A DNA stretch of 64,000 nucleotides from an uncultured Gammaproteobacteria bacterium (GCA_964633905.1 CAZWIT010000001.1:65535-129534); one strand, 5' to 3'. Positions 12,863 to 59,420 are shown, counted from the stretch's first letter. Notes: a model not told the origin generated them from the letters alone. Translations and numbers: made by a program.

Positions 12863-12877
12863 GGGAGGTTAGTGGTC

Positions 12878-15803: not shown

Positions 15804-15833
15804 GAAGAAATAATATTATATTAATATAATAAA

Positions 15834-16532
15834 ATGGAAAAATTTTTAATACAACAAAATTTAGTTTTATTTATTGTTGGCCTAGTTAATTTATTAATGG
15901 GCGTGTTTATTTTTAGTCGCGGAGTAAAGAATAAAATAAATTTGTATTTTAGTTGCATGACTTTGGCTAATTTTTTTTGGTCTTTAAGTTTAATACTTTT
16001 TAATTTAAGTTCCAATCAAGAGACATTGAGATTTTTTGCTAGCCTGCCCTATGCCTTTGCTTTTTTAGTGGTGGTATTTTTGTTTTATTTTTCTATATAT
16101 TTTCCTTATAAAATTTTTAATTTACCAAAAATTTATAAATGGTTATTAAACTTTATTGTGGTTATTGTGTTAGTTTATACTACCGTTTTTTATAGATTGT
16201 TCGTTGTAGAAACAATAATCTGGCCTGGTAATATGGCAAATTTTAATTTATTATCTTATGTAATATACACTTTATTATTAGTTTTATTAATGTTGGCGGC
16301 TCTTATATTTTTATTTTATAAATATCGTTTGGCGGAGGGTTTATTTAAATGGCAATTAAAAGTTGTATTTTGGGGAGTATTTTTAGGTACTTTTTTTGGC
16401 AGTTATTTTAATTTATTCTCAATGTATAATGATGATTTTGATTATGTTCATTTAGGCCCTTTATTTACATTATTTATTAATTTTATAGTTTTAGGTTTTA
16501 TTATAATGCCAAAGGATAAAATAAATAATTAA
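15834..16532 (+). CDS. Stand-alone 7TM sensor-domain membrane protein (paralog 1)
   Basis: 232 aa, all TM. Shares the KYRLAEGLFKWQLK… motif with the HK N-terminus and with the adjacent paralog. Confidence 0.6.
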   Translation: MEKFLIQQNLVLFIVGLVNLLMGVFIFSRGVKNKINLYFSCMTLANFFWSLSLILFNLSSNQETLRFFASLPYAFAFLVVVFLFYFSIYFPYKIFNLPKIYKWLLNFIVVIVLVYTTVFYRLFVVETIIWPGNMANFNLLSYVIYTLLLVLLMLAALIFLFYKYRLAEGLFKWQLKVVFWGVFLGTFFGSYFNLFSMYNDDFDYVHLGPLFTLFINFIVLGFIIMPKDKINN

Positions 16533-16535
16533 TTT

Positions 16536-17237
16536 ATGAATATTTTTTTAACAGTACAAATTATAACATTAACCTTTGCAACTTTAATTAATTTGTTGAT
16601 GAGTATTTTAGTGGCTAAGCGTGGCTTAAAAAATAAAATAAATAGGTATTTTAGCATTGTAACATTTTTTAATTTTTTATGGAGCTTTACAGTAATATGT
16701 GCTTTTTCTGGAGTTGCAATAGAGTTAGTTAATTTTTTTGATAAAACCACTAATTTTCTTAGTATTGGTATTATTTTATCTTTGTTTTATTTTTCTTTAC
16801 ATTTTCCCTATCAAAGAGAAGAAATAGATAAAGTTAAAACTACTATAATTTGGTTATTTACTATTTTATTATCCAGTATAATTTATACTAAGTGGTTTAT
16901 TATTAGTACTGTTTGGAGAATGAGACCATTTGATTATATTTCGTATTTTAATAGATATGGCTATTTTATTTATGTTACTTATTTTTTTATGTTAGCAATT
17001 TGGTCAATTTATTTATTATTTGTTAAATATAAACATGCTGAGGGTTTAGCTAAAAAGCAATTAAAATGGTTAATTTTAAGCATTAGTATTGGCTTATTTG
17101 GTGGCGCCTATTTTAATATATTGTTAAATTACTTAGGAGAATTTAGTTTAGGTTGGCTTGGTCCAATTTTTACTTTATTTATGAACATTACTGTTTTCTA
17201 TTTTATTATATCCTCTAAAGATAAGATTAATGACTAG
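16536..17237 (+). CDS. Stand-alone 7TM sensor-domain membrane protein (paralog 2)
   Basis: 233 aa. KYKHAEGLAKKQLKWL… motif. Tandem to the paralog at 15834. Confidence 0.6.
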   Translation: MNIFLTVQIITLTFATLINLLMSILVAKRGLKNKINRYFSIVTFFNFLWSFTVICAFSGVAIELVNFFDKTTNFLSIGIILSLFYFSLHFPYQREEIDKVKTTIIWLFTILLSSIIYTKWFIISTVWRMRPFDYISYFNRYGYFIYVTYFFMLAIWSIYLLFVKYKHAEGLAKKQLKWLILSISIGLFGGAYFNILLNYLGEFSLGWLGPIFTLFMNITVFYFIISSKDKIND

Positions 17238-26287: not shown

Positions 26288-27460
26288 ATGCCTCAAAAGA
26301 AAAGCGATTTTAATTATTTATTTTTAGTATCGATCTTTTTATTTATTTTTTTGCCGCAACTTTCTTTGGCTCTTGGGTCAAAGCAAAAAATAATACAGGA
26401 CAGTACCAAATACGTAGATAAATATTTTAGTAGTAATTTAAAAACAGGCGATCAGGATTTTATCTATTTAGGCGAACAAAAAATAGCCACCGTAGATGCT
26501 CAAGGCAATGTTTTTTACAATTTAGATGACCATTTGGCTTCGCCGACTTTGATAACTGATTCAGTTGGTCAAATTGTCTCTAGTCTTGATTATCAGCCTT
26601 TTGGCAAATTAAATTCGGCTGTTTCTAGTACTAATGATCATTATCAATTTAGTGACAAAGAGTTTGATGCTGAAAATAATTGGCAGTATTTTGGCGCTCG
26701 TTATTATGATAATATTTTGGGTCGTTTTAGCTCGCTTGACCCCGTTTATCTACAAAATGTTGGGCAATATTTGGCTGATCCGCAGCAGCTCAATAGCTAT
26801 GCTTATGCTCGTAATAATCCAATTAAGTTAATAGACAAGTCTGGAGAGAAAGTTTCGGAATACCAGCCATATAAGGCTAAAAATAATTTTTATAATGTAG
26901 GCGAAGCTTTTGGCGTATATCGTGGCTTAACATTAAAAAGCGGGGGAGAATTTACCGGCAGTGATAAGCACGAGTATCAATGTGTTGCTCTGGCTAAGGA
27001 CTTTGTCAAGCAACAATTTGATGTTACTATTGGCAGGATAGGGAGCGGTAGTAATTTTGGTAAGCAAGAAATACTTAATAGTTTTAAAAATGCAGGTAAT
27101 TTTGAGGTTTATAAAAATGGTGCTACAGTTATGCCGCAAGAAAATGATATTATTTCTTGGCAGGGCGGTGGCTATGGTCATGTAGGTGTTATTGCGGAAA
27201 TAAGTTTTGATCCAAAATCAGGCAGTGGTTATGTGTATACGCTAGAACAAAATGCTAGTAAAAATAGCGCTTTGTTTGCCCAAACACTGCAAAGAAATTA
27301 CAATAAAGCTGGTCAGGCTACTTATACTATTGGTGACCGATGGCAGAGTTATCAGGTGCAGGCCTGGGCTCGCTATGGAAACCAAAGCCAATTACCAGCT
27401 GAAAATTATTCACCAATTTTATATACGCCAGCTCCTAATTTATCAAAATATTATGAATAA
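26288..27460 (+). CDS. Secreted mini-RHS protein: signal peptide + terminal YD repeats/RHS core tip + C-terminal CHAP (amidase/peptidase) domain
   Basis: Signal peptide MPQKKSDFNYLFLVSIFLFIFLPQLSLALG. RHS core tail YFGARYYDNILGRFSSLDPV…NSYAYARNNPIKLIDKSGE. CHAP-like Cys (HEYQCVALAKDF) and His (GHVGVIAEI). Confidence 0.7.
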   Translation: MPQKKSDFNYLFLVSIFLFIFLPQLSLALGSKQKIIQDSTKYVDKYFSSNLKTGDQDFIYLGEQKIATVDAQGNVFYNLDDHLASPTLITDSVGQIVSSLDYQPFGKLNSAVSSTNDHYQFSDKEFDAENNWQYFGARYYDNILGRFSSLDPVYLQNVGQYLADPQQLNSYAYARNNPIKLIDKSGEKVSEYQPYKAKNNFYNVGEAFGVYRGLTLKSGGEFTGSDKHEYQCVALAKDFVKQQFDVTIGRIGSGSNFGKQEILNSFKNAGNFEVYKNGATVMPQENDIISWQGGGYGHVGVIAEISFDPKSGSGYVYTLEQNASKNSALFAQTLQRNYNKAGQATYTIGDRWQSYQVQAWARYGNQSQLPAENYSPILYTPAPNLSKYYE

Positions 27461-28151
27461 AAAATTATTATTTTTTTTAAGCCTAGTTTTTTTGTTAGCG
27501 ATTACTGTGGCTTTGTTAGTATATTATTTAAATAAATCAACGAATTCACATTTAACAAATCAAGTAAATAATATTTCTTGGTTAACATATAAAAATGAAT
27601 CTTTAGGTTTTCAGATTAATTATCCACAACAGATGGAGTTGTGGAATGGTAATTGTATCTTAGAAGATGGTCAGGCAAAAATTACCAATGGCTTAGTACC
27701 TACCAAAATGTTCGTTGATACTGCGGCGGTTTGGATTTCCTATGAATATTTTTATGAAAATGTTAATGGAGCTTGCAAAAGAATTGATAACTCAATAGCT
27801 CTCCTAAAGGAACAAAGTGCTTGGAAAATTGTTATAGCTGATAATATTAATAATGATAAAGATCTAGATATTTTTATTAAAAAATTCTATAAAAATTTTG
27901 GTAATTGTCAATTAGAAGAAAAGCGTCCTGCTATACAAAATGGCGTTTATGATGTTTTTACAGCTTATGATGGTAAGGACTTAGGAGAGTCAGAATGTTT
28001 TATTAATACTTGGTCAGTTATTAAATATTATCCAGCTAATAAAAAAGTGATTGCTTGGACAATTGGGCAAGAGCCATACTTTTGGTCTGACAATAGGGGA
28101 GCGATTACATTTGATCAAGCTATGGCTGATAGTTTTATGTTTTTACAATAA
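27453..28151 (+). CDS. Candidate immunity protein for the CHAP toxin (N-terminal TM/signal anchor)
   Basis: ATG 27453 overlaps the upstream stop (ATGAATAA). MNKKLLFFLSLVFLLAITVALLVYY… The track ORF 27252 is a 5' extension inside the upstream gene. Confidence 0.45.
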   Translation: MNKKLLFFLSLVFLLAITVALLVYYLNKSTNSHLTNQVNNISWLTYKNESLGFQINYPQQMELWNGNCILEDGQAKITNGLVPTKMFVDTAAVWISYEYFYENVNGACKRIDNSIALLKEQSAWKIVIADNINNDKDLDIFIKKFYKNFGNCQLEEKRPAIQNGVYDVFTAYDGKDLGESECFINTWSVIKYYPANKKVIAWTIGQEPYFWSDNRGAITFDQAMADSFMFLQ

Positions 28152-28314
28152 TATTCCAAATTTAAAAATCAGAAAAACTAAAAGCCTCTAGTATTAATTA
28201 GGGGCTTTTAATATTTGACAAGTTTTTTGCTTAAGCGTATATTTAATGTAGCTAGTATAGACGGCTTAAATTCTTGCGACGGCTATACAAATTGTCCGCT
28301 AAATTTAAATATTT

Positions 28315-28512
28315 ATGTTAAGAATAGCAAAAAGTAATTTATTATCAAAAATATATTGGCCTTTTGTCTTTATTTTGATAATTTTAATTTCTTTATTATT
28401 TTTAATATTTGGCTGGATTTTTTATTTAGCTGATTGTTTATTTTTTCAAAAATCTTTAGAGCGTAAAATCAAGAAAAGCGTTTTGGAGGATAAAATTATT
28501 TTAAACAATTAA
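28315..28512 (+). CDS. Small hydrophobic protein (65 aa)
   Basis: Single long TM segment. Its 3' end is part of the 64-bp direct repeat DR1. Confidence 0.35.
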   Translation: MLRIAKSNLLSKIYWPFVFILIILISLLFLIFGWIFYLADCLFFQKSLERKIKKSVLEDKIILNN

Positions 28513-28537
28513 TCAAAATTATATGTCGAGGTTAAAA
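28474..28537 (+). repeat. Direct repeat DR1 (64 bp)
   Basis: aaaagcgttttggaggataaaattattttaaacaattaatcaaaattatatgtcgaggttaaaa, 62/64 identical to 31140..31203. Confidence 0.9.
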
Positions 28538-28551
28538 TTATTTAATACCTT

Positions 28552-31068
28552 ATGTCTTTAAATAAAGAATCATCATTTAGTTTTGATAACGTTTTTAATG
28601 AAAAAACGGAGTTTGTGCAATATACTCTGGATACTTATAACCGTATTTATAATTTACCTACAATCAAATACGAGGGGGATGTTTCGGATGAATTATTTGC
28701 TTATGTGCAAAAAAGGAATTTTTTTGTACTTTTAGTTATCTATGATGGGAGTGGTCGTATATTTCTGGAAAGAAATTTACAAGAACAACTTTACTGGTCT
28801 TTGCCTGGTGGTAGCATTTTAAAAAATGAAGATATTCATACGGCGGTTAGAAGAATTTCTGAGAGAATACAAACAGATGGTAATAAAATGATTTTAGGTG
28901 AGATTGAACCAATTGCTTTTATCAAGAATAAATTTAATTGTCAGGATAATAGTTTTGTGCATCATGGTATAGCCTTTACTGCTAGGATTAGAAATTTTAA
29001 AGAGATTAATTGTGACGAATCTTTGGGGGCATTTATTCATCCAACTGATCAAGAGATTGATAAAATTAATAGGTATGCTAATCAGCAGGTGGTAAAATTA
29101 GTCTTGAGCAGATTAAAGTTTTTTGATACGCCTTTTCCAGAAATAGAGGTTGCTACTAATGAAAATTGTGCTTGGCGATATTTTATTCATAATAAGTTCG
29201 TTAAAAAATTTATTTTAACTTCAAGAATCAAGAAAAGATCAGAATTTTTAGATAAAATAAAAAATCTAATCGGTGAAGCTGGTAGTTTCATAGATGTCTC
29301 TTGTGGTGATAGTGATATTATTAATAGTGTTAATAATGAAAAGTTTAATTATTTGGTGGCTAATGATATTAGTTGGAGTCAAATAAAGTCTATTCAGAGT
29401 AACGATAAGAAAATTATTTTTACTAATCATAATGCGACTTATTTACCATTTAAGGAAAATTCTTTTGCTGTAGCATATTGCGCTAATACCTTGCACCACA
29501 TGTCTTCTAAAAAAGAGTTGTTAAAATTATTGGATAGTATTTTTAGAGTTGCTGAAAAATTGATTATTGTAGAGATAGAAAAACCAAATAATTCAGGCCT
29601 TATTCCATATTTTTTACATAAATATTGGTATGCCGGTTTTTTAAAAGATGTTGGTGGCGCTTATCTATCACGTCAAGATTTTTATAGTATCATTTCTTCA
29701 CATTTTGAAAAAAATGCTAGTATAAAATTTGATAATTTTTCCAATATTCAAGGAAATTATTTGATAGCCGAAATATCAAAAAAGAAAAAATCAGACTTAT
29801 CAACTCGAAAAATTATTGAGGTAGAGGCTAAATATATTTGTAAGGATATTTTAGCATTAATTAAAGAGTGCCAAAAAAAAGGTTTTATTTTACAAAAAGA
29901 CTTGTTGGAAAAAGATGAATATTTTACTGATATTAATGGGCAATTTGTTAAAGATAGAACTTGTTTAAGATTGCGTAGTAATAATGATAAACTGGAGTTG
30001 ACTTTTAAGGGCAAGTCCCAAGTGCCATCTAATTTTTATTTGAAAGAAGAGCATAATATTATTTTAGACATTAGACAATATAATGATTATCAAGAGATGA
30101 TTAATTCTTTAGGTTATCATAATTATGTTGAGGTCAAGAAAAAGCGTCGGGTATACCTTAAACAAGAAGTAGACTTTGCTATAGCTGTAGTTTTAGATGA
30201 GTTGCAAAATATTGGTTCATTTGTAGAATTTGAGATTAGTTATATTCGCGGCCAAAATTCACATTCAGAGGATGATTTTGTCAATATTTTTGATAAAATA
30301 GTAGATGAATTTAAGGTTTGTGGTTTAACGCCAGCGGACGAACCTTATCGGGATTATGTCGCGAAATTTTATGCTAATAATATTTTAAATAAAGATAAAT
30401 TAAGCACTATTTTATTTGATTTTGATGGCACAATCGCTCCATCTGAACAGATTTTTTTTGATGCTTACAAAAAAACAGCGACAGAGTTTTTTGGGCAACA
30501 AATCTCAATAGATGATTATCGTAAATTTGAGTTGGATCAAGAAGGCTGGTTATTTGATCATCTTTCAGCTGGTTCCATAAATGGCAATAGGATTTTTGGC
30601 AAAGAAACATTTATGGAGGCAGTTTATCTTGAATACGAAAATTTATTAGTTAAAATATTTAATAATAATAGTTTATTTTTAAATTTACATGGCATAGAGA
30701 TGCTAAAAAAGAAAGGCTATAAATTAGGGTTGGTTTCTTCCTCTAAAAGAAAATATATTGATTTAATATTAAATAATCTAAATCAAAATGGATTATTTGA
30801 TGTTATTATAGCCAGAGAAGATGTTGATAATTTGAAGCCTACACCTGATCCTTATTTGTTAGCTATGGATAAATTAGCAGTTAAAGCAGATGAGTGTCTG
30901 GCTGTAGAAGATTCTAACAAAGGTATTATGGCAGCAACCCAAGCTAAAATTAATTGTGTATCAGTTCGTAAAGATTCTATTTATGAAGAATATAATAATA
31001 GTAAATACGGTGATAGATCATTTGCTAGCGTTTTGCAAATTTGTTTGATTTTGTTATATGCAGATTAA
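28552..31068 (+). CDS. Multidomain protein: Nudix-like + class I SAM-methyltransferase-like + CYTH (triphosphate tunnel) + HAD hydrolase
   Basis: Nudix-like LPGGSILKNEDIHTAVRRISERI. CYTH start IEVEAKYICK. C-terminal HAD motifs ILFDFDGTIA … LGLVSSS … VEDSNKG. Confidence 0.7.
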   Translation: MSLNKESSFSFDNVFNEKTEFVQYTLDTYNRIYNLPTIKYEGDVSDELFAYVQKRNFFVLLVIYDGSGRIFLERNLQEQLYWSLPGGSILKNEDIHTAVRRISERIQTDGNKMILGEIEPIAFIKNKFNCQDNSFVHHGIAFTARIRNFKEINCDESLGAFIHPTDQEIDKINRYANQQVVKLVLSRLKFFDTPFPEIEVATNENCAWRYFIHNKFVKKFILTSRIKKRSEFLDKIKNLIGEAGSFIDVSCGDSDIINSVNNEKFNYLVANDISWSQIKSIQSNDKKIIFTNHNATYLPFKENSFAVAYCANTLHHMSSKKELLKLLDSIFRVAEKLIIVEIEKPNNSGLIPYFLHKYWYAGFLKDVGGAYLSRQDFYSIISSHFEKNASIKFDNFSNIQGNYLIAEISKKKKSDLSTRKIIEVEAKYICKDILALIKECQKKGFILQKDLLEKDEYFTDINGQFVKDRTCLRLRSNNDKLELTFKGKSQVPSNFYLKEEHNIILDIRQYNDYQEMINSLGYHNYVEVKKKRRVYLKQEVDFAIAVVLDELQNIGSFVEFEISYIRGQNSHSEDDFVNIFDKIVDEFKVCGLTPADEPYRDYVAKFYANNILNKDKLSTILFDFDGTIAPSEQIFFDAYKKTATEFFGQQISIDDYRKFELDQEGWLFDHLSAGSINGNRIFGKETFMEAVYLEYENLLVKIFNNNSLFLNLHGIEMLKKKGYKLGLVSSSKRKYIDLILNNLNQNGLFDVIIAREDVDNLKPTPDPYLLAMDKLAVKADECLAVEDSNKGIMAATQAKINCVSVRKDSIYEEYNNSKYGDRSFASVLQICLILLYAD

Positions 31069-31139
31069 TTATTGATAAGTACATAAAAGTAGTCATTTTT
31101 TAAAAAATATATATTTATTAAAGTAACTTTATAAATAAT

Positions 31140-31203
31140 AAAAGCGTTTTGGAGGATAAAATTATTTTAAACAATTAATCAAAATTATATGCTGAGGTTA
31201 AAA
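31140..31203 (+). repeat. Direct repeat DR2 (64 bp), contains the start codon of the giant RHS gene
   Basis: Same 64-mer as DR1 with tc→ct at the ATG(c/t)(t/c)GAGG position. ATG 31189 of the RHS ORF lies inside it. Confidence 0.9.
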
Positions 31204-34200
31204 GCAAAATTTAAAATGAAAATAAAAATTTTTAGTTTGGCTATTTTATTGCTGCTCAATAATTTTGCTTATTTACCAAAAGTAAGCGCGCAGGCAAAAA
31301 TAGTTGAGCCAGTAATGCCAGCGGATTTAAATATAGACGAATCAGTTTTGTCTTTGCCAATACCAGAAGAAGTAAAGCCAATTTTGATTGATCCTGATTT
31401 AAAACCGGATTTATTGCCAATAGAAGAGCCTGGTGATATTTTGGCAATAGAGCCAAAGCCAGGCAATCTAGAAATAGAGACTTTGACCGAAGAAGATCCT
31501 GAACCAAATTTTGATAAAGGCGAAAACAAAATTTCTTTAGAAAAATTAAATTTAAAAACCGAAGGCAATTCTGGGGCTTTGGTTTATGATTTTCCTTTAG
31601 CTATTCCTCAAGGCAGAAATGGTTTGCAGCCCAATCTTGCCTTAAGCTACAATAATCAAGATACAGAAAAATTAAATCAGTTTGGCTATGGGTGGTCTTT
31701 AAATCTTCCCAGTATCAAAAGAATTAATAAAAAAGGTTCGGATAATCTCTATGCTGAATCTTTTTTTAGTTCTTCCTTATCGGGTGAATTAAAATTAGTA
31801 AATTCCCTTGATGGTCTGCATGGTGAATATCAAGCTGAAGTAGAATCTGGTGATTTTATTAAATATGAATTAACTGAAAGTAATTATTGGCAAGCAACTG
31901 ATAAAACAGGTAATATCTATACTTTTGGTGTTGCTACCAGTTCTCGTCAAGATAATCCTAGTGATCAAGCTCAGATTTACCAGTGGTTTTTAAGTGAAAC
32001 TCGGGACACTAATGATAATTATATAAAATATGAATATTTTAAGGATGCTGGTCAGATTTATCCTGATACCATAACTTATACTGGTAATGATACAACAGAT
32101 GGTATTTTTACTATTGAGTTTTTAAGAGAAACAAGAGCTGATAATTTAGACTCTAATAACACTGGTTTTAATGTTATTAATAATTATCGTATTTCGGAAA
32201 TAGATATTAGTATTAATGATAATTGGGTTAAAAAATATGAACTGGATTATATTACTAGTAATAACGGTCAAAGCTCATATTTAGATACTATTTTAGAAAG
32301 TGCTAAAGATGAAAGTAATAATATAGTTAGTTTACCAATAAATGACTTTGATTATCAGGAAACTGTTAAAAGTTTTACCTTAGAAGAAAATTATGAGTTT
32401 CCTTTAATTTTTCATTATGATTACGGTAACACTGAGAAAGACCAGGGTGTAAGATTGGCTGATGTTAACGGCGATGGATATATAGACGCAGTCCATGCTT
32501 ATTATCGTGAATATTATCAGGAAGAGCAGCACTACGTTCTTGATTATAAAGATGTATATATAAATGACGGCAATGGTCATTGGAATTTAGATGAAACTTA
32601 CAATTTCCCAGAGTATTTTTTATTTTATGATGGTGATCAGGGTGTTAGATTAGATGATGTTAATGGCGATGGCCTGGCTGATGTGGTCAGGGCTTATTAT
32701 CGTGAGTATGACCAAGAGGGACAACATTATATTAATGACTATAAATATGTTTACATTAATAATGGTCATGGTTGGGATTTAGATGAAAACTATGAACTAC
32801 CAACTTATTTTATTTCATATTACAAAGAAAGAGGCGTGAGATTAACGGATGTAAATGGGGATGGCTTAGTAGATTTTGCTAAATCTTACTATGTTTGGAA
32901 CGGTAGTACAGAGTATATATATAAAGAGGTCTATATAAATGACGGCAATGGTAATTGGAATTTAGATGAAAGTTATGATATTCCTGTATATTTTAATTAT
33001 ATGAGCTGGGGTACAGACAGCAATCAAGGTGTGGAATTAGCTGATGTAAACGGAGATAATTTAGTCGATATTTTAAGATCATCCCATATTGTAAATAGTA
33101 ATGAATATATTATTAAAGAGGTCTATATAAATGACGGCAATGGTAATTGGAATTTAGATGAAAGTTATGATATACCAGTGTATTTCTACTATATTAGTTG
33201 GAGTACTGTAGTTGATGAGGGTGTAAAGTTAATGGATATCAATAAAGATAATTTAGTTGATTTTGTAAAATCTTATGGAGTATCTAGTAACGAATATCAA
33301 GAAGTATATATTAACAATGGTCATGGTTGGGATTTAGATGAAAGTTATACTTTACCAATAGATTTTTCTAGAAGTGGAGATAGAGGTGTACGAATAGGAG
33401 ATGCTGATGGAGATGATATAGGGGGTTTGATTCAGGGTTTGCGTTGGTGGAATTCACAAGGGTCTCATGATGAACAAAAGGTTTATCTTAACAACGCCAA
33501 AATCGAATCTCTCTCTACTATTAAAAACAGTCAAGGCTCAGAAATAAATATTAGTTATCAGCCATCTACACAATATAAAGATCAAAGTGGCAATCTACTT
33601 AATCCTAACCTGCCTTTTGTAGTGCAAACAGTTAAACAAATCACTATTAATGATGGTTTAGATAATGAATCAACTATCGATTATCAATATAGTGATGGTC
33701 AGTATTATTATAATAATCCCGAGCAAAGAAAAGTAGCTGGCTTTGGTCAAGTAGAAAAAATTATTGATGATACTAAAACCATTACTTATTATCACCAAGG
33801 CAATGAATCAAATTCTAGCCAAGGCGAATATCAAGATAGCTATTATAAAATCGGCAAACCATATCGTAGTGAAACTTATGATAATAATAGTAATAATTTG
33901 CTTTCTCAAGAATTATATAAATGGGAAGAAACTGATTTAGGTCATAATAATAAATTTGTTTATAACACTTTAAAATCTAGCACTGACTTTACTGGAGCTA
34001 CTAAGTCAACAGCTATCCAATATAATTATGATTTAACTTCAGGAAATTTGTTAACGGAAAATAATCTGGGTGAAGTAGTTGTTAATACTGATACTGGTGA
34101 AATCACTAGTCAACTAACTGGTGATGAAAAAGATACAGCTTATGCTTATGCTGAAAATATAGAGGATCATATTTTAGCAGCACCAATGACTAAAGTAATT

Positions 34201-37200
34201 AGTGATAACTCGGATAGTAAAGAGCAAAATCTTTATTATGATAACTCTTTGGTTTTAGGACAAGTAGAAAAAGTAAATTTAACCAAAGAGGATTATCTTG
34301 AGCAAGATGTTGAAGTTAATAGAAATTTTAACAATCTTGGCTTAGTAACTGAAGAAATATCGCCTGAAAATGCTACTACCACTATTGCTTACGATAGTAA
34401 TAATTTATATCCAGCTTCTTCTACTAATGCTTTAAACCAAGTTAGTTATACAGAGTATAATTTACTCAATGGTCAAGTAGCAACTACAACTGCTTCTAAT
34501 GGACTGACAACAGTTAATAAATATGATGCTTTTGGTAGGTTAAAAGAAGTATGGATTTCTAATCCTGATAGTCCTTCAAATTTAATTAAAAAACAAGAAA
34601 TCAGCTATCAGGATATTACTTTACCAAGATATAAAGAAAGCAAAGATTATTTTGATAATAATCTCTACACTACTACGCGCGAGTATTACGACGGTTTAGA
34701 CAGAGTTATTCAGAAAAAAAGCAGCTTAGCTAGCACAAATGAGTTTACTACCCTTGATATTAGTTATGATTCACAAGGCAGGGTAGCTAGACAATCTTTG
34801 CCGTATATTACTAGTAGTATTGTCTACAGTAGTGCTGATTTATCAAAGCCTGCCAAAACTTATACCTATGACGCTTTAGGCAGAGTTTTGACAGAAGTAA
34901 CACCAGTGGGGGCTACTAACTATGATTATAATGGTTTTACTACTCAAATTACTGATGCTAATAATAATCGTAAGGATTTGACTAAAGATGCCTACGGTAA
35001 TTTAGTGCAAGTCAAAGAATACAATGGCGCCAGTGTCTATACTACAAATTACGAATATACTTTGACTAATAAGCTGAAAAAGATTACTGACTCGTCTGGT
35101 AATATTAGAAACTTTAGCTATGACGCTCTAGATAATCTAGCTTGGCAAGATATGGTGCACAAAACATCGGTTAGCAATCCGGCTAAGATTCAATACACCT
35201 ATGATAAAAATGGCAACGTCTTAACGGAAACATCTTTTAAGAATGATGCTATATCTTACACTTACGATGATATTAATCGACCCTTATTAGAAAAATTAAG
35301 TGGCAATACTAAAATTAGTTATACTTATGATCAACATGGCGATATTGGCCAGCTAAGTTTTGCCGATTATGGCAATGGCAATTCTAAGGCCTATGATTAT
35401 GATATTTTGGGTAGAGTCAAAACAGCTACTACCACCATTGCCAATGAAGTATTTGTCATGGAGTTTGACTATAATTTAGCTGGCGCTTTAAAGATAATAA
35501 AGTATCCAGACAATAAGACAGTTAGCTACAACTTTAATGCTATTGGTCAAGTAAGCGGTGTGAATTTAGCTACTTCTACTTTGGCTACAAATATCACTTA
35601 TAATCAAAACGGCCAGATGACGCATGTAGAAAGGGCTAGTGGCGTGACTACTGATTATACTTATGATCCAGCGCAAGCTTTTCGCTTAACTAGAATTTTA
35701 TCTACCCAAGCTACTTCCACTTTGCAAGATCTTAATTATACTTATGATAACGTAGGTAATATTTTGACTTTAGTTGATAATGCTAATATGGATCTTAAAA
35801 AATCAGCTACTTATGCCTATGATGATTTAAATAGGCTACTCACAGCCACGGTCAGTTATCCTAATCATCCTGATAAAAATTATACGCAAAGCTTCACTTA
35901 CGACAGTATTGGTAATATGACCAGTAATTCTGACTTAGGCACTTTAAACTATAACAATGGTCAGCCACATCAATTATCTAGCTATGGTTCTAGAAACTTC
36001 CAATATGATGCAGCTGGTAATATGACTAGAAACGGCGGTATTAATAAATTCTCTTGGGACTATCGTAATCGTTTAAGTCTGTCTAACGACATTGTCTCAA
36101 ATAATAATACTTATTACCAATATGATCATAATAACCAAAGATTCTTAAAATATACTGAAGACTATGTCTTTATCCCTCCAGATATTGAAGAAACACCAAC
36201 GGTACAAGGCAGTATGATGCAGGCAGAAGGTTTGGATGGTGGTGAAGAACAGCTAGATGGAGTCGGTCATTGGGAATGGCAGAGGATAAAAGAGGATAAG
36301 TATATTGAAAATTATTTTGAAAAAAATGAGACTGATCAGACTAAAGCACATATTTATTTAAACTCTATCAAGATAGCAACTATTAATAATAATGATAATC
36401 CATATTATATTTTAGGAGATCATCTGAATTCTAGTTCAATATTAACAGATGGCTCTGGTGCTACGGCTCAATTGTCAGATTACAAGCCATTTGGTAGTAT
36501 TAACTATGATAACAAGCTCGTTGATTTGAAAAATGATTATAGTTTTACTGGACAGGAGTATGACGAAGAGTCTAGTTTGCAGTATTATGGGGCTCGGTAT
36601 ATGGATAATGAGATAGGGAGGTTTACTAGTGTAGATCCAGTAATAATTCAAGTAGAGTCTTTATCTAAAATATTAGCAGATCCTCAATCCCTAAATAGCT
36701 ATGTTTATAGCAGAAATAACCCAATAATATTAGTAGATAAAGATGGTAATTTTTGGCAAATATTTACAGCCGGAGTTGGGGCAGTAGGTGGTGCTATTTG
36801 GGGCGCCAAAGATAGCTATAACATGGTTAAGAATACTTTTCAGGGTAATTTTGACGCCGCTGCATATTATAGTGAAAGATCATTAAATAAATTAGGTACA
36901 GGTTTTATGGTAGGTCTTGGAGTTGGTGAGTTGGCCAAGCCATTTGTACAGACTTATGCGCCTAATACTTATAATGCTATAAATGGCAGTAAGTCTTTGC
37001 CTGTGTTAACTGATAAAGTTGGCGATCCTGGTCAAGGGTATTATCCTGGAAGAAATACGGGATTTAAATTAGATTCACAAGGGAGAATCTTAGACGGTAA
37101 AAATTTAGCTAATGGTAATTATAAAGTAGTAGTAAAAAATAACAATGTTATATTTGGCAAGGAAAAAAGCATTCCGGGCGGTGGTGATGACTTTAGTCAT

Positions 37201-37386
37201 GCAGATTTAGTAAATGGAGGAGATGTTAATTTTGCTGGTACTATGAGATTTAAAAATGGTCAACTACAATCATATAACGAATGGTCTGGGCATTATCAAG
37301 GAAAAGGTAATCAATGGGTGTTAGAGCAACAATTTGAAAAGTCCGGAATAAATTATAGAAATAAATTTGTAGATGTTTCGTATTAA
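31189..37386 (+). CDS. Giant RHS/YD-repeat polymorphic toxin (SpvB/TcB-like N-domain + FG-GAP propeller + YD repeats + RHS core + variable C-terminal toxin domain)
   Basis: Signal peptide. SpvB-like GNSGALVYDFPLAIPQGRNGLQPNLALSYNNQ…GYGWSL. Repeated DVNGDG FG-GAP blades. Many YD repeats. RHS core QYYGARYMDNEIGRFTSVDPV…NSYVYSRNNPIILVDKDGN. ~270-aa C-terminal domain of unknown type. Confidence 0.9.
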   Translation: MLRLKAKFKMKIKIFSLAILLLLNNFAYLPKVSAQAKIVEPVMPADLNIDESVLSLPIPEEVKPILIDPDLKPDLLPIEEPGDILAIEPKPGNLEIETLTEEDPEPNFDKGENKISLEKLNLKTEGNSGALVYDFPLAIPQGRNGLQPNLALSYNNQDTEKLNQFGYGWSLNLPSIKRINKKGSDNLYAESFFSSSLSGELKLVNSLDGLHGEYQAEVESGDFIKYELTESNYWQATDKTGNIYTFGVATSSRQDNPSDQAQIYQWFLSETRDTNDNYIKYEYFKDAGQIYPDTITYTGNDTTDGIFTIEFLRETRADNLDSNNTGFNVINNYRISEIDISINDNWVKKYELDYITSNNGQSSYLDTILESAKDESNNIVSLPINDFDYQETVKSFTLEENYEFPLIFHYDYGNTEKDQGVRLADVNGDGYIDAVHAYYREYYQEEQHYVLDYKDVYINDGNGHWNLDETYNFPEYFLFYDGDQGVRLDDVNGDGLADVVRAYYREYDQEGQHYINDYKYVYINNGHGWDLDENYELPTYFISYYKERGVRLTDVNGDGLVDFAKSYYVWNGSTEYIYKEVYINDGNGNWNLDESYDIPVYFNYMSWGTDSNQGVELADVNGDNLVDILRSSHIVNSNEYIIKEVYINDGNGNWNLDESYDIPVYFYYISWSTVVDEGVKLMDINKDNLVDFVKSYGVSSNEYQEVYINNGHGWDLDESYTLPIDFSRSGDRGVRIGDADGDDIGGLIQGLRWWNSQGSHDEQKVYLNNAKIESLSTIKNSQGSEINISYQPSTQYKDQSGNLLNPNLPFVVQTVKQITINDGLDNESTIDYQYSDGQYYYNNPEQRKVAGFGQVEKIIDDTKTITYYHQGNESNSSQGEYQDSYYKIGKPYRSETYDNNSNNLLSQELYKWEETDLGHNNKFVYNTLKSSTDFTGATKSTAIQYNYDLTSGNLLTENNLGEVVVNTDTGEITSQLTGDEKDTAYAYAENIEDHILAAPMTKVISDNSDSKEQNLYYDNSLVLGQVEKVNLTKEDYLEQDVEVNRNFNNLGLVTEEISPENATTTIAYDSNNLYPASSTNALNQVSYTEYNLLNGQVATTTASNGLTTVNKYDAFGRLKEVWISNPDSPSNLIKKQEISYQDITLPRYKESKDYFDNNLYTTTREYYDGLDRVIQKKSSLASTNEFTTLDISYDSQGRVARQSLPYITSSIVYSSADLSKPAKTYTYDALGRVLTEVTPVGATNYDYNGFTTQITDANNNRKDLTKDAYGNLVQVKEYNGASVYTTNYEYTLTNKLKKITDSSGNIRNFSYDALDNLAWQDMVHKTSVSNPAKIQYTYDKNGNVLTETSFKNDAISYTYDDINRPLLEKLSGNTKISYTYDQHGDIGQLSFADYGNGNSKAYDYDILGRVKTATTTIANEVFVMEFDYNLAGALKIIKYPDNKTVSYNFNAIGQVSGVNLATSTLATNITYNQNGQMTHVERASGVTTDYTYDPAQAFRLTRILSTQATSTLQDLNYTYDNVGNILTLVDNANMDLKKSATYAYDDLNRLLTATVSYPNHPDKNYTQSFTYDSIGNMTSNSDLGTLNYNNGQPHQLSSYGSRNFQYDAAGNMTRNGGINKFSWDYRNRLSLSNDIVSNNNTYYQYDHNNQRFLKYTEDYVFIPPDIEETPTVQGSMMQAEGLDGGEEQLDGVGHWEWQRIKEDKYIENYFEKNETDQTKAHIYLNSIKIATINNNDNPYYILGDHLNSSSILTDGSGATAQLSDYKPFGSINYDNKLVDLKNDYSFTGQEYDEESSLQYYGARYMDNEIGRFTSVDPVIIQVESLSKILADPQSLNSYVYSRNNPIILVDKDGNFWQIFTAGVGAVGGAIWGAKDSYNMVKNTFQGNFDAAAYYSERSLNKLGTGFMVGLGVGELAKPFVQTYAPNTYNAINGSKSLPVLTDKVGDPGQGYYPGRNTGFKLDSQGRILDGKNLANGNYKVVVKNNNVIFGKEKSIPGGGDDFSHADLVNGGDVNFAGTMRFKNGQLQSYNEWSGHYQGKGNQWVLEQQFEKSGINYRNKFVDVSY
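32923..33171 (+). repeat. Intragenic duplication inside the RHS propeller region
   Basis: A 57-nt identical stretch, aaagaggtctatataaatgacggcaatggtaattggaatttagatgaaagttatgata, occurs at 32923-32979 and 33115-33171, 192 nt (one blade) apart. Confidence 0.85.
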
Positions 37387-41762: not shown

Positions 41763-43346
41763 ATGCCAAGAATAAATTTTCATCGCAATGATAAAACAAG
41801 TGGGCCGGTAGTTTTGGCTATTTTAGATGGCTGGGGTATTAGTAAGGAAAATACAGGTAATGCTTTTGTTTTAGCTAAAAAACCAACTTTTGATAATTTA
41901 TTTAAAAAGTATCCACATGCAAAACTAGCCGCGTCTGGTGTCGAGGTTGGTTTGCCTGCTGGTCAGCCCGGAAATTCAGAGGCTGGTCATATGAATATTG
42001 GTGCTGGTCGGGTAGTTGAGCAGGATGCTGTTACTGTTTCCCGTTCTATTAATAATGGTACTTTTTTTAAGAACCCAGCTTTTTTGCAAGCCATCAAGCA
42101 TGTGAATAAACATAAATCTAGTATTCATCTGATGGGTTTGATTTCCAATGTTTCTAGCCCGCATTCTGATACTGATCATCTTTTATCTTTGTTAAGCTTG
42201 TTTCAACAAAAAACTAAACAACCGATTTATTTGCATTTATTTACTGATGGCCGTGATAGTCCAATTTTTGCTTCAGCTAAAATTTTAGCTCACTATCGTC
42301 ATATTTTTGATTCAGAGCGCGTGCATATTGCTACTATCATGGGTCGTTTTTATGCTATGGATAGAAAAAAGGCTTGGGATAGGACAAGGGCTGCTTATGA
42401 GGCTATGACTTTAGCCAAAGCCGAATTTTTTGCAGCTAATGCCGAGTCTGCTGTATCAGCGGCTTATGCTAGAGGTGAGAGTGATGAGTTTATCAAACCC
42501 ACAGTTATTTTAAATGGTAAAAAACCAGTAGCTACTATTGGTAATAATGACTCGGTAGTATTTTTTAATTTGCGTTCTGATCGAGCGCGACAGTTGAGCA
42601 AAGTTTTTGTTCAAGCTGATTTTGTCAAAAAAAATCCAGGTGCTTTTAAACCCAGTAAAGTTTTAAATAATTTAGTGTTTGTGGCTTTGACTGACTTTGG
42701 GCCAGATTTAGATAGTATTTTGACTGCTTATCCAGGTATAGATTTAGCTGATACTTTAGTGGCCAGTCTAAAAGATAAACGTCAGCTTTATATTGCTGAA
42801 ACCGAAAAATATGCCCATGTTACTTATTTTTTTAATGGCGGTTATGATCATGCGATTGTTGGTGAGACTAGAGTCAATATTCCTAGTCAAGAAGTAGATT
42901 CTTATGATATGTCTCCAGCTATGTCAGCATCACAAATTAGCAAATATATTGTTGATGTCTTACAAAATAAGCAATTTGATTTTGTAACTGTTAATTTTGC
43001 TAATCTTGATATGGTTGGACATACTGGCAATCTCCAGGCTGCTATTAAAGCCATTGAAGCAGTAGATTTGGCTTTAACTGATATTTTAAAAGCAGTTTTT
43101 GATCATAATGGTACTTTAATAGTTACAGCTGATCATGGTAATATAGAAGAGATGATAAATTTAAAAACTGGCGAAATTGATACCGAACATTCTATTAATC
43201 CAGTGCCATTTATTGTTGCTCAAAAAAATATAAAATATAAAATAAAAAGTAATGGCAGTTTGAGTAATATTGCTCCAACTATTTTAGAAATTATGAATGT
43301 TGATAAACCACTGGCCATGACTGCTAAATCTTTAATTATAAAATAA
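41763..43346 (+). CDS. gpmI: 2,3-bisphosphoglycerate-independent phosphoglycerate mutase (copy 1)
   Basis: ILDGWG, GNSEAGH (catalytic Ser), YAHVTYFFNGG, ADHGN. Confidence 0.9.
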   Translation: MPRINFHRNDKTSGPVVLAILDGWGISKENTGNAFVLAKKPTFDNLFKKYPHAKLAASGVEVGLPAGQPGNSEAGHMNIGAGRVVEQDAVTVSRSINNGTFFKNPAFLQAIKHVNKHKSSIHLMGLISNVSSPHSDTDHLLSLLSLFQQKTKQPIYLHLFTDGRDSPIFASAKILAHYRHIFDSERVHIATIMGRFYAMDRKKAWDRTRAAYEAMTLAKAEFFAANAESAVSAAYARGESDEFIKPTVILNGKKPVATIGNNDSVVFFNLRSDRARQLSKVFVQADFVKKNPGAFKPSKVLNNLVFVALTDFGPDLDSILTAYPGIDLADTLVASLKDKRQLYIAETEKYAHVTYFFNGGYDHAIVGETRVNIPSQEVDSYDMSPAMSASQISKYIVDVLQNKQFDFVTVNFANLDMVGHTGNLQAAIKAIEAVDLALTDILKAVFDHNGTLIVTADHGNIEEMINLKTGEIDTEHSINPVPFIVAQKNIKYKIKSNGSLSNIAPTILEIMNVDKPLAMTAKSLIIK

Positions 43347-43347
43347 A

Positions 43348-44925
43348 ATGAAAAGACCTCGCCCAGTAGTTTTGCTTATTCTTGATGGTTTTGGTATTGC
43401 GCCACCTTCGCGCGCTAATGCTATTTCTTTAGCTAAAACCCCAAATTTTGATAAATATTCGGTGCATTATCCAATCATGCCCATTGCTGCTTCGGGTGAA
43501 GCGGTAGGCTTGTCTTGGGGCGAGATGGGTAATAGCCAAGTCGGACACTTATCTTTGGGCTCAGGTTTAATTCCTTATCAAAATTTACCTAGGATTAATA
43601 AATCAATTACCGACGGCAGTTTTTTTAATAACGAAGCATTTTTAGCAGCCATCAAGCACACTCAAGACCATAATAGTGCTTTGCATATTTTAGGTTTAGT
43701 AAGTTCTGGTGGTGTGCATAGCTATAATGAACATCTTTATGCTTTGTTAGAATTAGCGCGTAAGCATAAAGTCAATCAGGTTTATGTGCATGCTTTTTTG
43801 GATGGTCGCGATACGCTCTATAATAGCGGTGTTAATTTTATTTCTAAATTACAAGAAAAATTAAGAAGTATTGGCGTCGGAGTTATCGCAACTGTGGGAG
43901 GGCGTTTTTATAGCATGGATAGGGATAATCGTTGGGATCGGGTTGCTAAAGCTTATGAGGCTATGGTTTTGGGTCAATCTCAAGATAAATATGACGATCC
44001 TATTACTGCTATTCAAGAGTCTTACAAAAAAAATATTTTCGATGAAGAAATGGTGCCCAGTGTTATTATTGATGACTTGGGGCAAGCTAAAGGTAAGATT
44101 AAAGACGGTGATGCAGTAATATTTTTTAATTTTCGTTCAGATCGGGCCAGACAAATGACAGAAGCTTTGACTGTTCCGGGTTTTGAAAAATTCCCTCGTG
44201 AATATTTTAAAGATTTATTCTTGGTGACCATGACCGAATATGAAAAGGATTTGCCAGTTAAAGTTGCTTTCCCACCATTGATAATCGATACGCCACTAGC
44301 TAAAGTAATTTCAGATGCTGGCTTAAAACAATTGCATATTGCTGAAACCGAAAAATATGCACACGTTACTTACTTTTTTAATGGCGGGCAAGAGCAAATT
44401 TATGCAGGTGAAGATAGGATTTTGGTGCCTTCTCCCCAGGTTGTGTCTTATGATCAAAAACCAGCTATGTCAGCACGGGAAATTACTAATAAGATTAATC
44501 AGGCTATTAAAGAAGGTAAATATGATTTTATTGTTGCTAATTTTGCTAATCCTGATATGGTGGCTCATACCGGTAATTTGCAGGCGACAATTGAAGCTAT
44601 TGAATTATTAGATCAATTAATTAATGAAATTGTAGAGGTTACTTTGTCTTATGAGGGCGTTGTTTTAATTACCGCCGATCATGGCAATGCTGAAGGTTTA
44701 TTTGATTTACAAACTGGTGAAATCGAAAAAGAGCATAGTAATAGTCCGGTGCCTTTATTTATCATTGGTTCGGAATTTGCTGGTAAAAGCGTTTTAACTG
44801 GTCTTACAAGCTCGGATCTTAGTCGCATTACGCCAGTTGGTGTTTTGGCTGATGTGGCCCCCACAATTTTAAAAATTATGGGTATTAAAAAACCACCAGC
44901 TATGACTGGCAGTTCCTTAATTTAA
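43348..44925 (+). CDS. 2,3-bisphosphoglycerate-independent phosphoglycerate mutase (tandem paralog, copy 2)
   Basis: ILDGFG, GNSQVGH, YAHVTYFFNGG, ADHGN. ~40% identity to copy 1. 1-nt intergenic gap. Confidence 0.85.
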   Translation: MKRPRPVVLLILDGFGIAPPSRANAISLAKTPNFDKYSVHYPIMPIAASGEAVGLSWGEMGNSQVGHLSLGSGLIPYQNLPRINKSITDGSFFNNEAFLAAIKHTQDHNSALHILGLVSSGGVHSYNEHLYALLELARKHKVNQVYVHAFLDGRDTLYNSGVNFISKLQEKLRSIGVGVIATVGGRFYSMDRDNRWDRVAKAYEAMVLGQSQDKYDDPITAIQESYKKNIFDEEMVPSVIIDDLGQAKGKIKDGDAVIFFNFRSDRARQMTEALTVPGFEKFPREYFKDLFLVTMTEYEKDLPVKVAFPPLIIDTPLAKVISDAGLKQLHIAETEKYAHVTYFFNGGQEQIYAGEDRILVPSPQVVSYDQKPAMSAREITNKINQAIKEGKYDFIVANFANPDMVAHTGNLQATIEAIELLDQLINEIVEVTLSYEGVVLITADHGNAEGLFDLQTGEIEKEHSNSPVPLFIIGSEFAGKSVLTGLTSSDLSRITPVGVLADVAPTILKIMGIKKPPAMTGSSLI

Positions 44926-56051: not shown

Positions 56052-56062
56052 ATATTAGTAAA

Positions 56063-57340: not shown

Positions 57341-57397
57341 TAAGTTAGTTTTGATTGACAAAGATTTATTTTTTTGTTAGAAATATTAAAGTTTTTT

Positions 57398-57472
57398 GGC
57401 CCTATCGTCTAACGGTTAGGACGCGTGGTTCTCAACCATGCAATCAGGGTTCGATTCCCTGTAGGGTCACCA
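57398..57472 (+). tRNA. tRNA-Glu (anticodon CTC), CCA encoded
   Basis: GGCCCTATCGTCTAACGGTTAGGACGCGTGG-TTCTCAA-CCATG…GGTTCGATTCCCTG-TAGGGTC-A-CCA. Similar to E. coli tRNA-Glu. Confidence 0.85.
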
Positions 57473-57473
57473 A

Positions 57474-57550
57474 GGTCGCATGGCTCAGCTGGTTAGAGCG
57501 TCGCATTCACATTGCGAAGGTCCCTGGTTCGAATCCAGGTGCGACCACCA
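57474..57550 (+). tRNA. tRNA-Val (anticodon CAC), CCA encoded
   Basis: Acceptor GGTCGCA/TGCGACC, D-arm GCTCAGCTGGTTAGAGC, anticodon stem-loop TCGCA-TTCACAT-TGCGA, T-loop TTCGAAT. 1-nt spacer from tRNA-Glu. Confidence 0.85.
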
Positions 57551-57565
57551 TTATTGAGTAATTAA

Positions 57566-57592
57566 AAAAATCAACCGATCTGGTTGTTTTTT
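57566..57592. terminator. Bidirectional terminator between the tRNAs and the GC-rich cassette
   Basis: Palindromic CAACCGATCTGGTTG flanked by A-run and T-run. A further hairpin AAGACCC…GGGTCTT (57606-57634) and GC-rich hairpin (57652-57685) serve the minus strand. Confidence 0.6.
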
Positions 57593-59397: not shown

Positions 59398-59420
59398 TAT
59401 TTATAAATTATTATATTATT

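Follow-up and report, generated by a model that had tools for sequence, protein, structure and literature searches.

The DNA analysed here is a stretch of 64,000 nucleotides (hereafter the window, meaning the whole stretch) deposited under an uncultured Gammaproteobacteria bacterium (GCA_964633905.1, CAZWIT010000001.1:65535-129534), and within it lies a gene for an 838-amino-acid protein that joins a Nudix-like domain, a class I S-adenosylmethionine (SAM)-dependent methyltransferase domain, a CYTH domain and a HAD phosphatase domain in a single chain (Table 1). A reading made from the sequence alone (the sequence-only reading) had proposed this open reading frame (ORF) as a fusion of phosphate- and nucleotide-processing folds with a methyltransferase, in an order of domains not known to have been described, and the ORF was present exactly as proposed, with 838 codons and an ATG start. 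Pfam matches revealed four non-overlapping regions, namely HAD_2 (residues 620-805, E=7e-31, 108 bits against a cut-off of 23.8), CYTH (PF01928; residues 422-562, E=2.7e-11, 44.1 bits against 23.2), Methyltransf_11 (residues 248-334, E=8e-9, 36.4 bits against 21.2; taken together with Methyltransf_25, residues 247-334 at an E-value of about 1e-8, above the gathering score) and NUDIX (PF00293; residues 59-130, E=2.8e-3), the last at 18.1 bits and so below its gathering score of 21.1. Because this architecture is kept at full length in about 30 other clusters (827-854 amino acids), a chance ORF or an assembly chimera is excluded; all four domains are real, and the fusion is a genuine one rather than a plain CYTH-HAD protein or simple HAD phosphatase with spurious Nudix and methyltransferase segments. 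The family alignment used throughout comprises 30 full-length homologues of that same size range, 39-52% identical to the window protein. Full-text literature searches, covering 7.7 million papers and 0.34 million preprints, returned no description of the four-domain architecture, in line with what the sequence-only reading had supposed. Each domain belongs to a known superfamily, and the combination represents a rare, conserved and undescribed multi-enzyme family.

The N-terminal domain has the alpha/beta/alpha fold of Nudix proteins and is among the best conserved parts of the fusion protein. Its Nudix box retains G87-x5-E93-x7-R101, with G87, E93 and R101 invariant in the family alignment, and the segment corresponding to REUxEE reads R-I-S-E-R-I. 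The glutamate of the 'RE' pair is I, V or L in every member with an alignable Nudix box, at least one of the two later glutamates is still present in distant relatives (RVVLEETGL and RIVLKETGL, for instance), and the four-domain subfamily has no glutamate at the catalytic positions, the EE pair being absent. A catalytic Nudix hydrolase was rejected on these grounds, as the box GX5EX7REUXEEXGU is dead in all members and the PF00293 score lies below the cut-off. With the box catalytically degenerate throughout the family, the domain probably serves to bind a ligand and not to hydrolyse one, and that ligand is most likely a nucleotide. Its closest structural relatives are NrtR, NudC, ADPRases and NUDT12, all of which bind ADP-ribose or NAD(H)-type dinucleotides, with weaker Nudix matches that include GDP-mannose mannosyl hydrolase and the arabinose-binding AraR.

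The second domain has the Rossmann-like fold of class I SAM methyltransferases and passes the corresponding Pfam thresholds. Motif I reads D248-V-S-C-G252-D-S, with a single glycine left of the D/E-x-G-x-G-x-G pattern, and D272, a candidate for the acidic residue that follows strand 2 in class I enzymes, is invariant. Across the 30 full-length members the invariant positions are D248-V-S-C-G252-D, N271-D272, N292-H293 and C310-x-N312-T-x-H315-H316, of which N312, H315 and H316, together with D366, are invariant across the whole wider family too. A SAM site appears plausible from these motifs. The domain reached the curated threshold of no specific methyltransferase subfamily, and its top structural match was Hen1, a ribose 2'-O-methyltransferase, although this similarity is not specific.

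The third domain carries the CYTH motifs E423-x-E425-x-K427, C471-x-R473-x-R475 and E559-x-E561, as well as further basic residues, all of them invariant or nearly so (at least 90% of members have E423, E425 and K427; C471, R473, R475, E559 and E561 are invariant); in the window protein they read S-T-R-K-I-I-E-V-E-A-K, C-L-R-L-R and E-F-E. Published motif rules (Vogt et al., PMC8233210) assign HFxxxxExExK, a small residue replacing the first Arg of RxR, and ExA to class IV adenylate cyclases, W/YxRxR to thiamine triphosphatases, and a small residue followed by R-x-R, plus a C-terminal ExE for two-metal catalysis, to triphosphatases. As the window domain combines a small residue, R-x-R and ExE, these rules place it in the triphosphatase class, and by motif we take it to be of triphosphatase type and no cyclase. 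A thiamine triphosphatase was rejected because the W/Y position before RxR is occupied by the invariant Cys, C471. A class IV (CyaB-type) adenylate cyclase, and with it a signalling role, is what the databases suggest, as NCBI and JGI give homologues the name 'class IV adenylate cyclase' or 'predicted adenylyl cyclase CyaB' and the NCBIfam model TIGR00318 scored 57.3 bits, narrowly under its cut-off of 57.95. The domain has none of the three cyclase features, however, lacking HF, possessing R473 and carrying E559-x-E561 where a cyclase has ExA, and its closest solved sequence relative, SaTTM (7ns8, E=1.3e-13 in a PDB profile search), does not form cyclic nucleotides and is subject to inhibition by pyrophosphate, its product (PMC8233210). 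We therefore rejected the cyclase, which is very improbable as an account of the protein, and since the motifs are those of the triphosphatase class the database names are probably wrong. The sequence-only reading had pictured the CYTH domain acting on triphosphates and nucleotide messengers; the first part agrees with the motifs, and the second is unlikely given the missing cyclase motifs. CYTH domains fused to HD, exopolyphosphatase, nucleotidyl kinase and CHAD domains have been described in print (PMC8233210).

The C-terminal domain possesses all four HAD motifs, with D623-x-D625-G-T627, S731, K762-P763 and E786-D787 conserved, and scored 48.1 bits against a cut-off of 29.4 for the NCBIfam HAD-IA model TIGR01509. 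Thus, among the catalytic signatures that the sequence-only reading had singled out, CYTH ExExK and HAD DxD are conserved and the Nudix REx2EE is degenerate. PDB profile matches of the HAD domain included TM_1254 (E-value 1e-26), the beta-phosphoglucomutase family and HAD-type pyrophosphatases, and its closest relatives include sugar-phosphate phosphatases and the HAD-type pyrophosphatases PpaX and BT2127. Every named equivalog (beta-phosphoglucomutase, PpaX, phosphoglycolate phosphatase and others) fell far below its curated cut-off, for example 74 against 218 for PpaX and 71 against 189 for beta-phosphoglucomutase, and substrate specificity is therefore not transferable. The HAD domain has its best relatives among sugar-phosphate phosphatases and the beta-phosphoglucomutase family, and this, taken with the weak Nudix matches to GDP-mannose mannosyl hydrolase and arabinose-binding AraR, suggests a pathway outside nucleotides, in which a phospho-sugar, a phosphoethanolamine-type head group or an isoprenoid diphosphate would be bound by the Nudix-like domain, methylated and dephosphorylated. 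We consider such a pathway unlikely, as it leaves unexplained the recurrent CYTH triphosphatases, the nucleoside monophosphate (NMP) or deoxynucleoside kinase (dNK)-type kinases, the cytidylate kinase and the canonical Nudix genes described below, and no sugar, lipid or isoprenoid biosynthesis genes recur beside the family loci examined.

To place the protein in its family, we searched 1.84 billion representative proteins with a profile of the Nudix-like domain, which revealed 192 matches at E<=1e-3 and 125 at E<=1e-10. The Nudix-like and methyltransferase domains together (hereafter N-M) define a family of about 150-190 clusters, in most of which N-M stands by itself, with N-M-CYTH, N-M-HAD (and one HAD-N-M) and N-M-CYTH-HAD as the other forms (Table 1). 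The most elaborate of these, with all four domains, is rare, at about 35 clusters that come mostly from Patescibacteria, and the best non-self homologue of the window protein anywhere is 52% identical. In gut Bacilli and Muribaculaceae the four domains are split over two adjacent genes, [N-M] and [CYTH-HAD], and a standalone CYTH gene adjoins N-M, or lies at most two genes away, in the cyanobacterium Laspinema and in three metagenome-assembled genomes (MAGs), one each from Solirubrobacterales, a proteobacterium and Aenigmatarchaeota, the standalone and fused CYTH sequences being 31% identical. Two Clostridiales proteins (P0031 and P0032; L004:2080-5455, a Clostridiales MAG) have a fused CYTH domain without ExExK ('VKQGK'), and a standalone CYTH gene of 277 amino acids follows directly, which looks like a functional replacement. 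The family core is thus N-M, which has acquired CYTH and HAD several times over and in more than one arrangement, and this argues strongly that all four activities contribute to a single process. Uncultured organisms account for most of the family, among them Patescibacteria, a DPANN archaeon, gut Bacilli, Clostridia and Alphaproteobacteria MAGs.

Evaluating the neighbourhoods of about 35 other family loci, which represent roughly 15-20 independent lineages and whose associations were counted by hand, revealed recurring partners of the core. A small P-loop kinase resembling thymidylate kinase or dNK (Tmk-like) adjoins it in a Patescibacteria locus (L006, where the neighbour is the four-domain gene), in Staskawiczbacteria (L088), in Laspinema (L086) and in gut Bacilli (L089); the kinases of L006, L088 and L086 are 35-48% identical to each other, and a DPANN archaeon locus (L032) gave a weak AAA_28/Tmk-like match. 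In four gut Clostridia loci the core has a cytidylate kinase and a canonical Nudix gene at its flanks; three Alphaproteobacteria loci have a canonical Nudix gene beside it, and Bacillota an HD hydrolase. A GreA/GreB-like protein also recurs, in Bacillota (including Clostridia), Alphaproteobacteria and Staskawiczbacteria, and these Gre-like partners (L018, L020, L024, L087 and L088; for example L088:6784-7293) share a conserved 'WHDN' motif, which we take to occupy the position of the acidic tip of E. coli GreA. The WHDN proteins look like a distinct Gre-like subfamily. The window copy possesses neither a kinase nor a Gre-like partner.

Against PADLOC v2, the partner kinases matched the defence-candidate models PDC-M51B at 41-115 bits (maximum 114.7) and VakA, which we assume to stand for 'viperin-associated kinase', at 32-79 bits (maximum 78.9), scores that may reflect general Tmk similarity; a cytidylate kinase reached only 21 bits against the kinase models. 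Literature searches on VakA and PDC-M51 found no description of them. The fusion protein itself matched none of the PADLOC v2 families, and the N-M core gave one weak, generic methyltransferase match (mad2, 30.6 bits). Defence-type genes adjoin some loci, namely pPIWI-RE, an OLD-like ATPase with UvrD and Fic, SIR2_2, and an AAA_15/21 ATPase. In two Patescibacteria loci (L003 and L005) the four-domain gene sits between gatC and gatA (ligA-gatC-X-gatA), an arrangement that we set aside as a functional clue because it is confined to one closely related Patescibacteria group.

These partners bear on an analogy with viperin, under which the N-M core would make a methylated nucleotide analogue, for example a ribose-O-methyl nucleoside triphosphate chain terminator, or else a new alarmone, and would belong to an antiviral or signalling module. 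The Tmk-like kinase would then supply the substrate, the Gre-like partner would let the host RNA polymerase cope with the analogue (or, in the alarmone variant, would be the factor through which the alarmone is sensed at RNA polymerase), CYTH, HAD, HD or Nudix would act as an off-switch or as self-protection, and the four-domain protein of the window would be the most compact, self-contained form, mobile among bacteria of the candidate phyla radiation (CPR). The PADLOC kinase matches, the recurrence of the WHDN protein beside the core in Bacillota, CPR and Alphaproteobacteria, the adjoining defence-type genes, the accessory nature of the window gene in its variable island (see below) and Hen1 as the top structural match all point in this direction. 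Set against them are the lack of a PADLOC model for the fusion protein and the weak mad2 match of its core, kinase matches that may be no more specific than Tmk similarity in general, the many loci flanked by housekeeping genes, a window copy without kinase or Gre-like partner, defence-gene adjacencies that are hand counts, a scan of viral contigs in which no member of the N-M core was found, and the unspecific character of the Hen1 similarity. On balance we regard this analogy as rather unlikely.

The Gre-like partners, which tie the system to transcription, also suggest the modification or repair of RNA ends. In such an enzyme the CYTH domain would serve as an RNA 5'-triphosphatase and the HAD domain would be a polynucleotide phosphatase, the methyltransferase would methylate terminal ribose in the manner of Hen1, and an RNA 5' end or cap would be recognised by the Nudix-like domain. 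The superfamily of triphosphate tunnel metalloenzymes (TTMs), to which CYTH domains belong, includes RNA triphosphatases (PMC8233210). Nudix enzymes include RNA decapping and deNADding ones, and NudC and NUDT12 are among the top matches here. The CYTH domain is nearest SaTTM-type enzymes, however, and not the mRNA triphosphatases of the Cet1-like family; neither an RNA ligase nor a polynucleotide kinase nor an RNA-binding domain is fused to the family or recurs beside it in the loci examined; the recurring kinases are of the NMP/dNK type and act on mononucleotides; and where Hen1 has E-x-x-E-H the family reads N-x-x-H-H, which a non-RNA enzyme approaches as well (see the comparison below). A role at RNA ends is thus quite unlikely.

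The surroundings of the window gene were the basis for a different proposal. The window is ordinary chromosome of the Patescibacteria/Parcubacteria type, every named relative of its enolase coming from Patescibacteria, and it carries genes for GAPDH, CysRS, TrpRS, PGK, enolase, two cofactor-independent phosphoglycerate mutases (iPGM), BacA, MltG, a PBP and a Mur ligase. Downstream of the fusion gene lie a gene for a 2065-amino-acid SpvB/FG-GAP/RHS protein and then small genes, and upstream lie genes for a CHAP-domain protein and for a 299-amino-acid protein of no named kind. The sequence-only reading had placed the fusion gene between two polymorphic-toxin loci, which stands for the RHS side and is not supported for the upstream side, where the CHAP-domain protein and its neighbour matched no PADLOC defence model.

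The fusion gene is the sole content of a segment bounded by two copies of a 64-nucleotide direct repeat (Table 1), which differ by two mismatches, share 52 exact nucleotides where none would be expected by chance, and have unrelated flanks. A relative with a 94% identical enolase (GCA_964533435.1; locus L084) possesses a colinear locus that runs from the small ORF through RHS, two small genes, PGK, enolase, iPGM, iPGM and BacA to YceG, with the fusion gene absent and the homologue of the small ORF directly preceding RHS. The nucleotide alignment of the window with L084 runs to 28540 and restarts inside the RHS gene, and L084 has a single 64-nucleotide element whose left flank is that of copy 1 and whose right flank is that of copy 2. 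Either the 2602 nucleotides were inserted with duplication of the 64-nucleotide element, or they were lost from L084 by recombination between repeats; under both histories this empty site means that the RHS locus exists without the fusion gene. The relative also appears to lack the gene elsewhere, since no non-self homologue anywhere is closer than the 52% identity given above. Neither an integrase nor a transposase is encoded in the insert, a metagenome scan with the 64-nucleotide repeat gave no match, and base composition gives no clear foreign mark (G+C of 0.28 for the insert against 0.34 for the window, with G+C at third codon positions, GC3, within the range of native genes).

The fusion and RHS genes have a common leader, GAGGTTAAAA, followed after about 14 nucleotides by ATG, and a scan revealed no terminator-like site between the small ORF, the fusion gene and the RHS gene, so that the fusion and RHS genes are probably co-transcribed. 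A promoter-like site upstream of the small ORF may serve all three genes jointly, although such sites are no more frequent in the region than in shuffled sequence, which makes this weak evidence. The co-transcription, probable as it is, is a consequence of the insertion and implies no functional tie to the toxin. The listed start of the RHS gene, ATG 31189, falls inside the repeat, and the likely true start is ATG 31217 (MKIKIFSLAILLLLN, signal-peptide-like), which agrees with the start-region position in L084. The RHS gene (31217-37386) has a GC3 of 0.43 against 0.21-0.28 for its neighbours, is about 79-80% identical in nucleotides to the L084 copy and is rearranged in its central part. The CHAP gene and the 299-amino-acid gene (window ~26288-28300) have no counterpart in L084 1-930, which carries a TehB-like methyltransferase fragment and a 232-amino-acid gene; the region from the histidine kinase to PGK is a variable island.

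From the location, the sequence-only reading had suggested for the fusion protein a detoxifying enzyme of an immunity or defence kind, or a nucleotide-modifying effector; in this setting the protein would work with the flanking RHS and CHAP loci. Its position, 72 nucleotides upstream of the repeat that leads into the SpvB/FG-GAP/RHS gene and with a CHAP-domain gene on the other side, its possession of the RHS leader, the probable co-transcription and the variable island would all suit such a role. They are outweighed by the equivalent small ORF-RHS-PGK-enolase locus of L084, with its single element and no fusion gene, and by the family at large: conserved adjacency to a toxin gene, the mark of an immunity or accessory gene, was not found, as no RHS or CHAP gene stood in any of the roughly 35 other family loci examined (four of them annotated later than the rest), drawn from Patescibacteria, Bacillota, Bacteroidota, Alphaproteobacteria, cyanobacteria and archaea, and clustering of neighbour genes from 30 family loci and the window revealed no window neighbour that shares a family with another locus. 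The RHS gene is already followed by small genes of its own of immunity size, no PADLOC model matched, and inspection of the translation by eye revealed no recognisable signal-peptide-like or toxin-delivery segment at the N-terminus of the fusion protein. We rejected the toxin or immunity role because L084, a close relative, has the empty site and the other family loci examined lack toxin neighbours, and hold it to be hardly credible.

Table 1. Features of the fusion gene and its surroundings, kinases beside related loci, and forms of the family (window coordinates unless a locus is named; nt, nucleotides; aa, amino acids).
Feature	Position	Strand	Extent and remarks	Basis
Gene for 838-aa four-domain protein (Nudix-like, methyltransferase, CYTH, HAD)	28552..31068	+		ORF list, translation, Pfam and NCBIfam matches, about 30 full-length homologues
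Nudix-fold domain with N-terminal helical extension	28603..29121	+	residues ~18-190	
Degenerate Nudix box, GSILKNEDIHTAVRRISERIQTD	28810..28878	+	residues 87-109	family alignment
Class I SAM-dependent methyltransferase domain	29167..29787	+	residues ~206-412	
CYTH / triphosphate tunnel metalloenzyme domain	29809..30363	+	residues ~420-604	Pfam CYTH, PDB profile match to SaTTM 7ns8, motif rules of PMC8233210
HAD-IA phosphatase domain	30397..30981	+	residues ~616-810	Pfam HAD_2, NCBIfam HAD-IA, PDB matches, invariant residues
Promoter-like site, TTGACA-17-TATATT	28215..28243	+	11/12 matches; upstream of small ORF	consensus scan only
Small hydrophobic ORF upstream	28315..28512	+	65 aa	61-aa homologue at L084 933..1118, 81% nucleotide identity
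Direct repeat, copy 1	28474..28537	+	64 nt; last 13 codons of small ORF plus leader; ends 14 nt before fusion ATG	
Direct repeat, copy 2	31140..31203	+	64 nt, 2 mismatches; starts 72 nt after stop codon; ends 13 nt before ATG 31217	
Inserted segment (or segment lost from L084)	28538..31139	+	2602 nt; fusion gene the sole content	blastn colinearity with L084, three-way junction alignment
Tmk/dNK-like kinase, Patescibacteria	L006:4477-5022			
Tmk/dNK-like kinase, Laspinema	L086:5153-5731			
Tmk/dNK-like kinase, Staskawiczbacteria	L088:3661-4227			
Tmk/dNK-like kinase, gut Bacilli	L089:8953-9528			
N-M form			~380-440 aa; majority	Pfam and BLAST
N-M-CYTH form			~566-627 aa	Pfam and BLAST
N-M-HAD form, plus one HAD-N-M			~630-680 aa	Pfam and BLAST
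N-M-CYTH-HAD form			~830-850 aa	Pfam and BLAST

Elsewhere in the window, three consecutive genes at 14418-17237 carry a HisKA_7TM N-terminal membrane region, two of them (232 and 233 amino acids) without a kinase domain, and the iPGM genes at 41763-44925 are tandem paralogues of 527 and 525 amino acids, both of which are also present in L084. Patches of raised G+C occur at 12000-14000 and 56000-60000 (0.40-0.46 against about 0.33), with overlapping ORFs on both strands at 12-14 kb and 57.7-60.4 kb; 56.0-57.3 kb is the Mur ligase gene, and Rfam revealed only tRNAs in these patches (57398-57547).

Taking domains, family and partners together, the explanation that we favour, tentatively and short of calling it probable, is that the fusion protein would work in the cytoplasm as a multi-step enzyme, binding a nucleoside polyphosphate or some comparable nucleoside diphosphate (NDP)-linked small molecule, methylating it and removing phosphate from it; we infer what its substrate is, in which order the steps run and what role it has in the cell. 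The Nudix-like domain would bind the nucleoside polyphosphate or NDP-linked ligand, the class I methyltransferase would methylate the ligand held there, the CYTH triphosphatase would take off the tri- or pyrophosphate, and the HAD domain would remove the last phosphate or, as its relatives include the pyrophosphatases PpaX and BT2127, may instead clear the pyrophosphate that inhibits CYTH-type triphosphatases. The net effect would be that a methylated nucleotide or nucleoside is made, or disposed of. In the present Patescibacteria/CPR genome the gene is, on this account, accessory DNA inserted in the leader of a toxin operon of the RHS type, with no functional tie to the toxin.

The support for this multi-step enzyme comes from live CYTH and HAD motifs, a dead Nudix box, and an N-M core repeatedly joined to phosphohydrolases and NMP-type kinases. 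Several observations weigh on the other side: non-catalytic Nudix folds can bind ligands other than nucleotides, with AraR, which binds arabinose, among the matches; the HAD domain, being nearest to sugar-phosphate phosphatases, would be compatible with a non-nucleotide substrate too; a kinase plus phosphatases in one pathway makes no obvious simple degradative route; and the neighbourhoods vary, several loci being flanked by the housekeeping genes gatC/gatA, pta-ackA and asnB.

That a core of dead Nudix domain and methyltransferase has been combined, repeatedly and independently, with triphosphatases, phosphatases and NMP-type kinases points to a piece of nucleotide chemistry not yet recognised, for which the family gives a short and concrete list of candidate substrates. 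Many of the lineages that bear the family are generally regarded as small-genomed, and nucleotide supply and quality control are considered critical there. Database labels of the members ('class IV adenylate cyclase', 'HAD-IA hydrolase') are misleading, and the cyclase annotation is corrected here. Should a methylated nucleotide analogue with an antiviral or signalling role prove to be the product, the family would constitute a new branch of nucleotide-based immunity or signalling. The locus also illustrates that adjacency to a toxin gene can be an accident of insertion.

Compared with known systems, the Nudix-like domain resembles the non-catalytic Nudix-fold ligand binders (NrtR, AraR, the NadQ regulators and the C-terminal domain of MutY), although those are fused to a DNA-binding or glycosylase domain and this one to a methyltransferase, and the catalytic enzymes NudC and ADPRases are structurally as close to it as the non-catalytic binders are. 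The methyltransferase differs from Methyltransf_11/25-type enzymes (RebM, phosphoethanolamine N-methyltransferase) and from Hen1 in that motif I reads D-V-S-C-G-D in place of D-x-G-x-G-x-G and in having an invariant set of its own (C251, H293, C310, N312, H315, H316 and D366). Hen1 holds its metal with E-x-x-E-H plus a distal His (E796, E799, H800 and H860 in plant HEN1) where the fusion family has N-x-x-H-H, and RebM, which is no RNA enzyme, has a similar 'ESLHH'. The CYTH domain has ExExK, RxR and ExE in common with the CYTH TTMs (SaTTM Saci_0718, PH1819, NeuTTM and CthTTM) and differs from SaTTM-type TTMs in being one module of an 838-amino-acid protein, and the HAD domain shares all four motifs with HAD-IA phosphatases (the beta-phosphoglucomutase/YqaB subfamily, TM_1254, PpaX and BT2127). 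Viperin is linked to NMP kinases and is occasionally fused to a 'triphosphatase or cyclase domain', and with CMPK2 or the viperin-associated kinases it offers an analogy of working only, that of a SAM-using enzyme acting on a nucleotide beside a linked kinase of the thymidylate or CMP kinase type; viperin uses a radical-SAM domain and dehydration chemistry, whereas the fusion family has no radical-SAM domain and its chemistry would be methyl transfer.

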